Shown in pieces: positions 38,114-39,474 of a stretch of 64,000 nucleotides of DNA. The stretch lies in the NCBI GenBank assembly GCA_963735395.1, contig CAVTKV010000013.1, forward strand, positions 23,861-87,860, written 5' to 3'. The notes below the pieces were generated by a model. The model saw only the letters and a program-made list of their open reading frames with translations. It was not told the DNA's origin and did no database searches. The DNA is from an uncultured Acidimicrobiales bacterium (GTDB lineage Bacteria; Actinomycetota; Acidimicrobiia; Acidimicrobiales; VFJN01). The position numbers and the translations under genes were made by a program. Within the stretch, counting starts at the first letter, position 1; each line of letters starts with the position of its first letter.

Positions 38114-38812
38114 TCAGGTCCGCACGGCGAACACGATCACGTTGTCGACGTAGTGCCCGCTCGACCGGTCGAACGCACCGCCGCAGGTCACCAGCCGAAG
38201 CTCCGCGCCGGCGGTCGGGGCGTAGACGCTCTCGGTCGGGAACGCGGCCTTGGTGTGTCGCTCGATGCGCTGCACGGTGAACTCGACCCGGGAGCCGTCG
38301 GTGCGGATCACGTCGACCAGGTCGCCCGGCTGCAGCTCGCCCAACCGGTAGAACACGGCCGGGCCGCGCGTGGAGTCGACGTGCCCGGCGATGACGGCCG
38401 GGCCCTGCTCGCCCGGCTCGGGCCCCCCGGTCCACCACCCCGTGTCGTCCACATCGTCGGGAACCTCGAGAGCGCCCGACCCATCCAGCCCCAGAGGGAT
38501 GATCGGTGCGTCCACCCCGATTGCCTCCGCGTAGACGCGCATCGGGTCGGCCGCCTCGGCGTCGATGCTGGACAGCGTCGCCTGCGGGATGCCCGTGGGC
38601 GGTGGTGCCGTGGCCGGGCCGGGGGTCGCCGCCGCAACCGTCGGCGTGGTCGCCGGCTCGGTCGTGGTCGGGGCGAGGGCGTCACCCCGGGACCCGGCCG
38701 ACTGATCCGGCCCGTCCCCAGAACCCCCGCAGGCGACAAGGACGAGCGCGGCGACGGCCGCCGCGAGTCGGAACGACCCGCGGCGGCCCACCGGGAAGCA
38801 ATGGCCCAGCAT
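38114..38812 (-). CDS. sortase (class E/F-like) with a lipoprotein-type signal
   Basis: AVIAGHVDSTRGPAVFYRLGELQPGDLVDV... (His) and ...ELRLVTCGG (Cys in TLxTC). N-terminal LAAAVAALVLVACGGS. Confidence 0.85.
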   Translation of the reverse strand: MLGHCFPVGRRGSFRLAAAVAALVLVACGGSGDGPDQSAGSRGDALAPTTTEPATTPTVAAATPGPATAPPPTGIPQATLSSIDAEAADPMRVYAEAIGVDAPIIPLGLDGSGALEVPDDVDDTGWWTGGPEPGEQGPAVIAGHVDSTRGPAVFYRLGELQPGDLVDVIRTDGSRVEFTVQRIERHTKAAFPTESVYAPTAGAELRLVTCGGAFDRSSGHYVDNVIVFAVRT

Positions 38813-38814
38813 GA

Positions 38815-39474
38815 TCAGTCGCGCCGACCACCCAGACGGGCGAACGCCAACCGACCCGCGGCCACGCCGCCCACGGCCAGAGCGGCGAGCGGTGCCGCCC
38901 AACCGATGACCGACGTGCCCGTCGACCGGTCAACGCTGGCCCGCTCGGCCGTCCAGGACTCCGCCGTGCCGCCCTGGCCGGTGGCGACACCACCGGCGGG
39001 CACCTGGGCGCCGTCGGCGTCGTCGTCGTCGTCGTCGTCGCCCGTGGCGGTCGCCGTGCCGCCTTGGCCGGTGGCGACACCACCGGCGGGCACCTGGGCG
39101 CCGTCGTCGTCGTCGCCGTCGTCGTCGTCGTCGTCGTCGCCCGTGGCGGTCGCCGTGCCGCCTTGGCCGGTGGCGACACCACCGGCGGGCACCTGGGCGC
39201 CGTCGTCGCCGTCGTCGTCGTCGTCGCCCGTGGCGGTCGCCGTGCCGCCTTGGCCGGTGGCGACACCACCGGCGGGCACCTGGGCGCCGTCGTCGCCGTC
39301 GTCGCCGTCGTCGTCATCGTCGCCGCCGTCGTCGTCCTCCTGGGCAGAGGCCGGCGAGATCAGCCCGGCTGTCGTCGGCGACCACGCCGCCATCATGGTG
39401 ACGCCGGTTCCGGCGAGTACCGCCATCGCCACGATCGCCACCATCCGTTGCAGCATTGCTCGCATCGTGCACAT
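38815..39474 (-). CDS. secreted, highly acidic tandem-repeat protein with a C-terminal cell-wall sorting signal; probable substrate of the adjacent sortase
   Basis: Signal peptide MRAMLQRMVAIVAMAVLAGTG. Four repeats of GDDDDD(G)DDGAQVPAGGVATGQGGTATAT. The C-terminus is a hydrophobic helix (IGWAAPLAALAVGGVAAG) plus a basic tail (RLAFARLGGRRD). It is followed immediately by the sortase gene in the same orientation. Confidence 0.75.
   Translation of the reverse strand: MCTMRAMLQRMVAIVAMAVLAGTGVTMMAAWSPTTAGLISPASAQEDDDGGDDDDDGDDGDDGAQVPAGGVATGQGGTATATGDDDDDGDDGAQVPAGGVATGQGGTATATGDDDDDDDGDDDDGAQVPAGGVATGQGGTATATGDDDDDDDADGAQVPAGGVATGQGGTAESWTAERASVDRSTGTSVIGWAAPLAALAVGGVAAGRLAFARLGGRRD
38990..39345 (-). 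repeat. 4 copies of an imperfect tandem coding repeat of about 87-99 bp (poly-Asp/GAQVPAGGVATGQGGTATAT units)
   Basis: The nucleotide-level repeat (...gcccgtggcggtcgccgtgccgccttggccggtggcgacaccaccggcgggcacctgggcgccgtcgtcg...) is visible directly. Confidence 0.8.

Follow-up and report, generated by a model that had tools for sequence, protein, structure and literature searches.

A putative class F sortase operon whose poly-aspartate substrate repeats a GVDTG-type motif in an uncultured Acidimicrobiales bacterium

Class F sortases are widespread in actinobacteria, with five in Streptomyces coelicolor and four in Actinoplanes, and they have no assigned function and are encoded next to proteins without a recognised motif (PMC6998099, PMC13251363). 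In the passage of PMC8225981 that cites Di Girolamo et al. 2019, SrtF of Propionibacterium acnes is described as the only biochemically characterised member, a housekeeping enzyme that uses LPXTG. In Actinoplanes missouriensis, the secreted proteins AMIS_11010 and AMIS_36440, encoded beside srtF1 and srtF4, were suggested as substrates from gene context, the authors saw "no sortase-recognising pentapeptide" in them, and a quadruple srtF mutant had no phenotype under the conditions used (PMC13251363). The combination of a class F sortase (NCBIfam NF033748) with a GVDTG sorting signal (NCBIfam NF058571) is already known, as database models only, and our literature search returned no paper describing the GVDTG family, which exists as a curated NCBI model only. 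Here, we analysed computationally a 64,000-nucleotide (nt) stretch of high-GC (about 70%) DNA from an uncultured Acidimicrobiales bacterium (assembly GCA_963735395.1, contig CAVTKV010000013.1, positions 23,861 to 87,860), termed the window, to which all coordinates refer. On its minus strand, a gene for a secreted poly-aspartate protein with four GVATG-containing repeats is followed by a class F sortase gene, and we consider it on balance probable that the two genes form a regulated operon in which the class F sortase is paired with a dedicated substrate destined to be a wall polyanion.

The poly-Asp gene (38815-39465, minus strand) encodes a protein of 216 amino acids (aa), has homologues, and shows a frame unbroken for 651 nt with a third-position GC content (GC3) of 0.87. 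Its open reading frame (ORF) spans 39504 to 38815, with alternative upstream starts at 39504 and 39474, the latter, three codons 5′ of ATG 39465, being the start used in an earlier note on this DNA. ATG 39465 (MRAMLQRM) is the likeliest start as judged from the sequence, because a GAAGGG ribosome-binding site lies 9-10 nt before it and the resulting N-terminus matches those of homologues. The first 41 residues (39343-39465, minus strand), which end in SPASA before QEDDD, read as a long Sec-type signal peptide with a basic n-region, a hydrophobic core and an A-x-A site, conserved in homologues and putatively cleaved between SPASA and QEDDD. Four repeat units, a 24-aa spacer (ESWTAERASVDRSTGTS), a 19-aa hydrophobic segment and an Arg-rich tail follow, so that the protein ends in VIGWAAPLAALAVGGVAAG and then RLAFARLGGRRD (helix and tail, 38818-38910, minus strand). 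An AlphaFold model built with 20 aligned relatives contained just two helices, the signal peptide (residues 2-27) and the C-terminal transmembrane helix (187-214), with all residues between them below a predicted local distance difference test (pLDDT) score of about 55. Counted from the predicted start of the mature protein through the last GVAT, the 121 residues include 38 Asp and 1 Glu and no Lys or Arg. The earlier note had described a secreted, extremely acidic repeat protein with a C-terminal hydrophobic helix and basic tail, and the signal peptide, the composition and the modelled helix and disorder bear this out. No further strongly acidic ORF and no further sortase was found in the window.

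Tandem Repeats Finder delimited the array (period 87/99 nt, 3.9 copies, 90% matches, 38962-39327), and the four units together occupy 38962-39336 on the minus strand with offsets of 29, 33 and 30 aa, in agreement with the four 29-33-aa repeats first noticed. Each unit consists of an Asp tract followed by QVPAGGVATGQGGTA(TAT). The tracts contain 12, 7, 11 and 8 Asp residues interrupted by Gly or Ala, with longest uninterrupted runs of 5-7, so the "7-13 consecutive Asp" originally ascribed to each repeat was an overstatement. The key feature that the earlier note missed is that the motif P-A-G-G-V-A-T-G-Q-G-G is itself reiterated, once within every unit. The only family matched by the protein is NF058571, named "GVDTG sorting domain" (GVDTG_CTERM), and the match scores best within a repeat, where aa 76-93 align to profile positions 1-18 of 44. 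Scanned separately, each unit matches profile positions 1-16 at about 17 bits: copy 1 of QVPAGGVATGQGGTA (39238-39282) scores 16.8 bits, copy 2 (39151-39195) 17.5 bits, copy 3 (39052-39096) 17.1 bits, and the membrane-proximal copy 4 (38962-39006, all minus strand), which aligns over positions 1-40 of 44 including the helix, 16.6 bits. The 60 nt encoding the motif do not differ at all among units 1-3 and carry one synonymous change in unit 4, so that the array is recent or homogenised. In every unit (window 38971-39318), the AGGVATG-coding DNA forms a perfect 7-base-pair (bp) hairpin (CCGGTGG-TGTCG-CCACCGG), which accounts for four sub-threshold Rfam mir-598 hits that we attribute to chance.

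Given that the units match NF058571 and that the C-terminus without the repeat motif matches no family at all, the recognition element is probably GVATG within P-x-G-G-V-x-T-G-x-G-G, present in four copies. Across the poly-Asp family, P, G-G-V, T-G and G-G show little or no variation, and 17 of 20 members match NF058571 at E<0.01 (best E 3.4e-12); the search for a sorting motif in homologues that the earlier note suggested thus yielded a conserved P-x-G-G-V-x-T-G-x-G-G together with a transmembrane helix and a basic tail. At the very end of the protein, ~24 aa, the 19-aa helix and RLAFARLGGRRD follow the GVATG core, as against ~12 aa between motif and helix in typical GVDTG members. Within this spacer (window 38911-38961, minus strand), ESWTAE(P/R)..(N/S)(D/E)RS.G is kept in the close clade. 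A canonical LPXTG or LAXTG anchor was rejected, as the pentapeptide is missing and the models TIGR01167 and PF00746 are unmatched; the earlier description of the pentapeptide as non-canonical holds to this extent, while a recognisable motif does exist in each repeat. The candidate that the earlier note had put nearest, VDRSTG or the STGTS region, was also rejected: it is not conserved, varying to RSAG, RSVG, RSGG, ESDG and GSSG in the 19 closest homologues, and GVATG takes its place.

The sortase gene (38114-38812, minus strand, 232 aa) starts at ATG 38812, 2 nt beyond the TGA of the poly-Asp gene. The enzyme matches PF04203 and scores 192.6 bits on NF033748 (cut-off 166), as opposed to 27.1, 18.4 and 16.9 bits on the class GN, class E and class D models; of the class E/F type proposed earlier, class F therefore stands and class E does not. 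It is identical to a database protein (P0020), and its closest named relatives come from Acidimicrobiales and Actinomycetota metagenome bins. Its catalytic domain (aa ~89-232) is preceded by an N-terminal anchor, in which LVAC (aa 25-28) resembles a lipobox, and by a linker of ~60 aa rich in Pro, Thr and Ala. Most homologues share this layout, with a linker of the same composition that is 50-80 aa long and an N-terminal anchor that often includes a lipobox-like Cys. In an alignment of 29 homologues, H144 (AGHVDS), C210 (LVTCGG) and N224 (Y-x-D-N) never vary, and no Arg after the Cys is invariant. In actinobacterial class F sortases, an Asn stands in place of the catalytic Arg (PMC6998099), and N224 may be that Asn, an equivalence drawn from sequence only, with a structure model of low confidence at residues 132-151. 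In a Foldseek comparison of this model (mean pLDDT 65) with the Protein Data Bank (PDB), all 15 best matches were sortases (probability 0.99-1.00) with weak E-values of 5e-4 to 2e-2, and a PDB sequence search with the sortase returned no match at E<=0.001. The enzyme shares its class F assignment with P. acnes SrtF and differs from it, together with its relatives, in being a single-substrate operon enzyme, in apparently carrying Asn for the catalytic Arg and in its association with GVxTG-type signals.

To place the pair among class F sortases at large, we used 50 independent genome loci encoding relatives of the window sortase as a generic class F sample. Under a strict pattern, G[VILA]xTGxG in an ORF ending with a hydrophobic stretch and an Arg-rich tail, 24 of the 50 loci had a same-strand gene adjacent to the sortase, upstream in 23 and downstream in one (L025), and inspection by eye of the remaining loci added the variants GVAAGGG, GAMATGGGG, GVSAGGGG and KGAPETGDG. 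An automatic criterion, which asked for [TA]G no further than 32 aa ahead of 15 or more uncharged residues in a row and then for two or more Arg/Lys, was positive for the upstream ORF of 37 of the 50 sortases and for 24 of 1998 control ORFs (1.2%) from the same loci. In these generic loci the motif Thr usually lies 12 residues ahead of the helix, and NF058571 aligns over positions 1-43 of 44 at the C-termini of proteins with the unrelated domains CHRD, DUF11 and SH3_3. Since motif, transmembrane helix and tail occur upstream of most class F sortases and NF058571 covers these C-termini, the class F sortase with an adjacent GVxTG-type substrate is, by sequence criteria, a general pairing. Among poly-Asp homologues, the sortase gene lies directly 3′ in seven related loci (L001, L002, L053, L055, L056, L057 and L058). 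A sortase with a dedicated adjacent substrate, as the earlier note had supposed, is thus supported by the 2-nt gap, the seven related loci and the 37 of 50 generic ones. A separate sortase clade for poly-Asp substrates was considered and rejected, the Nonomuraea enzyme being 56-59% identical to poly-Asp-linked and 55-56% to generic sortases.

A word-indexed search found 19 relatives of the poly-Asp protein, and 82 were recovered at E<=1e-3 when 1.84 billion cluster representatives were scanned in full with HMMER. With few exceptions, they have a common layout: a signal peptide, an acidic tract, P-x-G-G-V-x-T-G-x-G-G-(T/A)-A, a short spacer, a helix and a basic tail. The number of motif copies among 78 complete members was zero in 5, one in 37, two in 24, three in 8, four in 3 and five in 1. 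Members from isolates, all annotated "hypothetical protein", have five units in Nonomuraea sp. SBT364 and three each in N. thailandensis and Herbidospora cretacea. Arrays of 2-5 units also recur with chemically different spacers; in Streptomyces iakyrus (CP178212.1; L057 5001-6616), four KPHGGMHTGGGALS motifs are separated by His/Lys/Asp/Glu-rich spacers, and this KPHGGMHTGGG-type array is followed by a class F sortase (205 bits). Two pairs of close relatives differ by a single unit: P0002 (three units) and P0006 (two) are identical at 155 of 155 aligned residues with one 32-aa gap, and P0007 (two) and P0142 (one) at 121 of 121 with one 31-aa gap plus two Asp. These apparent one-unit allele differences support the earlier expectation of a hypervariable unit number and show the variation among close relatives, with the caveat that short-read metagenome assemblies can collapse such repeats.

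The same caveat raises the possibility that the array is itself a mis-assembly, or a non-coding low-complexity GAC tract with a spurious ORF, a reading to which several frame interruptions in neighbouring genes, and hence possible indels in the assembly, also lend something. In S. iakyrus, many copies run into a contig end and are recorded as "partial", which suggests that short-read assemblies break at these repeats. The four-unit count in the window is the count as assembled. Nevertheless, the poly-Asp and sortase frames are intact despite the neighbouring frame breaks, the 651-nt frame has the GC3 given above, the four units differ in their Asp tracts, signal peptide, motif and tail recur in the 82 related cluster representatives, and multi-unit relatives occur in isolate genomes, with 3-5 units in Nonomuraea sp. 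SBT364, in N. thailandensis (4 accessions) and in the complete S. iakyrus chromosome. We therefore give an artefact next to no credence.

Two relatives have unusual layouts: in P0159, a signal peptide is followed by two Asp/GVDTG units that run straight into a class F sortase domain without an intervening helix, and in P0093, a class F sortase carries at its C-terminus an acidic extension, a helix and an Arg tail of its own. Both layouts could be natural fusions or could stem from assembly errors. In the Acidimicrobiales metagenome-assembled genome MFD06742.bin.1.182 (L047 2914-3171), a sortase with 91% identity to the window enzyme is reduced to its last 57 residues, and no GVxTG-motif ORF was detected in that locus. 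This relative has apparently lost the sortase-substrate locus.

The 110 nt upstream of the poly-Asp gene are strongly conserved, and a 5-locus alignment with long invariant blocks outlines a conserved leader or promoter region (39466-39580, minus strand). Within it, a direct repeat CTCAC-N6-CTCAC (39519-39534, minus strand), 69 nt upstream of the start codon, is a candidate response-regulator box that occurs once in the window against 0.24 expected. The form CTCAY-N6-CTCAC was present 60-80 nt upstream of the poly-Asp-type gene in 8 of 8 related loci, out of 13 hits in total in 910 kb. An 11-bp direct-repeat spacing, as in this box, is typical of OmpR/PhoB-family sites. An Rfam scan of leader and gene gave no family, the only sub-threshold hits being mir-598, on the repeats, and mir-2766, and scans for a sigma-70 consensus promoter and for terminators found none. 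On the plus strand, 1.4 kb beyond the sortase gene and convergent with it, Pfam identified a sensor histidine kinase (HAMP-HisKA-HATPase_c; 34609-36065) and an OmpR/PhoB-type response regulator (36050-36724). An orthologous two-component system is linked to the pair in six contexts (the window, L053/L054, L055, L056, L002 and L058), and in the Nonomuraea loci L002 and L058 it lies immediately upstream of the pair. The regulator is 84-89% identical in L053, L055 and L056 and 68% in Nonomuraea L002. The kinase, compared for L053, L055 and L002, is 85-88% identical to that of L053, 77-88% over L053 and L055, and 54% in L002; the linkage in L058 comes from synteny with L002, not from BLAST. In the 50 generic class F loci, no such regulator was found.

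Relative to L053, the kinase frame in the window is broken near 34976-34995 and carries a 1-nt insertion near 35988, with read-through into the response regulator; these breaks are either long-read indel error or pseudogenisation. In tblastn, the match to the L053 kinase is divided between two frames. The best NCBIfam families of both proteins are the heavy-metal models TIGR01386/TIGR01387, at 205 bits for the kinase (cut-off 292.55) and 197.5 bits for the regulator (cut-off 279.2). Divalent-cation binding, which the earlier note had suggested for the acidic protein, is plausible inasmuch as the linked system is nearest to heavy-metal sensors, although that likeness falls below the curated cut-off. 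Its other suggestion, a phage or adhesion decoy, found no supporting context, in an analysis with no search aimed at defence or phage genes.

Five box hits lie outside poly-Asp-type genes. In Nonomuraea (L002 7128 and L058 6196) the box stands upstream of DUF4956-VTC (polyphosphate-type) genes. In L056, two hits (4714/4725, reverse) stand upstream of a gene for a secreted acidic protein with SADSP repeats. In L053, a hit (8487, reverse) lies beside an orthologous SADSP ORF, but inside a longer stop-to-stop ORF. That four of the five precede DUF4956-VTC or SADSP genes suggests a small regulon of extracellular polyanions.

From the computed gene structure, family assignments, motif conservation and linkage, we infer a scheme of cleavage, wall attachment, multi-site processing, regulation and cation binding. 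The substrate would be exported through its Sec-type signal peptide and held in the membrane by the C-terminal helix and Arg tail, and the sortase would recognise P-A-G-G-V-A-T-G-Q-G-G as a GVDTG-type signal and cut between T and G. The cargo would be a disordered polyanion with no folded domain and the product a wall-linked poly-aspartate, which would equip the envelope with additional fixed negative charges and let it bind more cations. The precursor would offer four equivalent sites, one per unit of Asp tract plus recognition motif, and the sortase may cut at every one of them, turning one precursor into several short poly-Asp peptides, each corresponding to the mature part of single-unit relatives. 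We see the chances of such multi-site cutting as evenly balanced, and it is favoured by the position of the sortase on a flexible ~60-aa linker. Unequal recombination between near-identical units could readily change their number, and the linked histidine kinase and OmpR-type regulator would probably control expression through the CTCAY-N6-CTCAC box.

Alternatively, only the fourth motif works, the internal copies are duplication passengers, and the product is one wall-anchored chain of ~121 aa, which we regard as rather unlikely. Copy 4, the helix and the tail together make up a full tripartite sorting signal, and classical sorting signals act as such a unit beside the membrane (PMC13251363). 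A single copy is also what 37 of the 78 family members and 50 of 50 generic class F substrates have. Multi-site cutting, by contrast, would draw on a chain that is disordered in the model and on a sortase that could reach along it by its flexible linker. Internal copies, moreover, appear to be maintained in the family: among 53 of them, at positions left free in the search pattern, P is kept in 50, the preceding G in 50 and the following G in 43, and in 70 non-identical unit pairs within one protein the motif positions are 0.89-1.0 identical as against 0.51-0.79 for the x positions. Furthermore, sortases cut short anchor-free motif peptides in vitro.

Several points weigh against the operon reading that we favour and against multi-site processing. 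The NF058571 cut-off of 29 bits is barely attained: the four partial matches add up to 28.2 bits in the 229-aa ORF and to 29.1 bits in the 216-aa protein, and the terminal signal alone scores 16.6 bits, a low value that we ascribe to a spacer twice the usual length. Conservation of the internal motifs within the window protein reflects recent duplication, with 100% identical DNA, and not selection, and decayed internal copies in the relatives P0013 and P0016 indicate that not every copy is maintained. The cut between T and G is placed by analogy with LPXTG, which is cleaved at the corresponding position. Locus L001 has no such two-component system within 6 kb, the heavy-metal sensor likeness is a resemblance only, under the cut-off, and the two breaks in the kinase frame, if real, would mean that regulation has been lost here.

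A different outcome of cleavage at the same sites would be release. The sortase would then serve mainly to process the precursor proteolytically, either hydrolysing the acyl-enzyme or passing the acyl group on to the N-terminal Gly of another unit, and would set free soluble, re-ligated or cyclised poly-Asp peptides able to chelate extracellular metals or minerals. Cleavage between T and G would leave G-x-G-G N-termini that, from the sequence, resemble classical oligoglycine sortase nucleophiles, and with Asn for the catalytic Arg the chemistry of class F may differ. The motif, helix and basic tail nonetheless have the architecture of an anchoring signal, and proteins with folded CHRD, DUF11 and SH3 domains carry the same signal, fitting surface display, so that we hold release to be highly improbable.

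The locus agrees with NF058571 proteins and NF033748 sortases in its P-x-G-G-V-x-T-G-x-G-G motif, helix and Arg tail and in the position of the gene immediately upstream of a class F sortase. Typical NF058571 members have one signal copy, ~12 aa from the helix, ending a folded domain or one acidic tract, whereas here the N-terminal half of the signal occurs four times, the cargo is poly-Asp only and the spacer has ~24 aa. AMIS_11010 and AMIS_36440, likened here by their published description only, share the C-terminal helix, the basic tail and the class F sortase neighbour. The Asp tracts also recall the SD repeats of staphylococcal Clf/Sdr proteins, which are acidic, length-variable, situated upstream of the sortase signal, and lie within or span the wall. 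Both are acidic low-complexity regions of variable length directly before a sortase signal, but the SD repeats form a dipeptide stalk under a folded ligand-binding domain, with a class A sortase and one LPXTG outside the repeat, whereas the window protein lacks a folded domain and has its motif within the repeat. Under multi-site cutting, the precursor would by analogy resemble multi-core precursors such as those of cyanobactins, which contain several cassettes flanked by protease recognition sites: cargo and recognition cassettes would be reiterated, several products would arise, and the cassette number would vary. The enzymes and the chemistry are different, and there is no sign here of cyclisation or release.

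What is new in this locus is thus the poly-aspartate-only cargo, the tandem recognition site, the variable unit number, and the conserved two-component system with its candidate operator. Literature searches for GVDTG, aspartate-rich sortase substrates and tandem or multiple LPXTG gave nothing relevant, and we found no published description of the tandem reiteration of the motif, of an Asp-only cargo or of the linked regulator; to our knowledge, tandem repetition of a sortase site has no prior description. Taking these observations together, we advance, tentatively, a joint reading in which the sortase would be a cassette-processing enzyme yielding four wall-linked (or G-x-G-G re-ligated) peptides, the cassette number would be a fast-evolving dosage knob, a dedicated cation-sensing two-component system would be the switch, and the VTC/DUF4956 and SADSP genes of other genomes would belong to the same polyanion regulon.

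The surrounding genes comprise a BldD-like regulator (~36775-37250, minus strand; 128 bits on NF050110, cut-off 250), a TetR-family regulator (~37354-38001, plus strand) and a family 2 glycosyltransferase related to cellulose or poly-N-acetylglucosamine synthases (40792-42864, minus strand), none of which is conserved beside the pair in the other loci examined. Upstream of the poly-Asp gene lies a frameshifted gene with DUF308 and secretory lipase (LIP) domains (39571-40774, minus strand), in which positions 22-64 of the 286 of the LIP profile are left. This apparent truncated remnant stops directly ahead of the conserved leader, and its frameshift is either an indel error or a mark of a pseudogene.

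In this locus and its relatives, the putative substrate is minimal, free of cargo and marked by an 11-residue motif that does not vary, which makes class F specificity testable with one peptide and one enzyme, and a sortase acting on G-V-x-T-G-x-G-G, with its cut between T and G, would be a ligation tool orthogonal to LPXTG enzymes. If all sites are used, sortases would extend from anchoring to polyprotein-type processing. The regulator and its box provide a route to the inducing signal and hence to the role of wall-linked poly-aspartate, for which cation buffering, metal tolerance and mineral adhesion are candidates. If the joint cassette reading is true, actinobacteria would possess a regulated protein counterpart of teichoic acids, and class F sortases a first physiological role.

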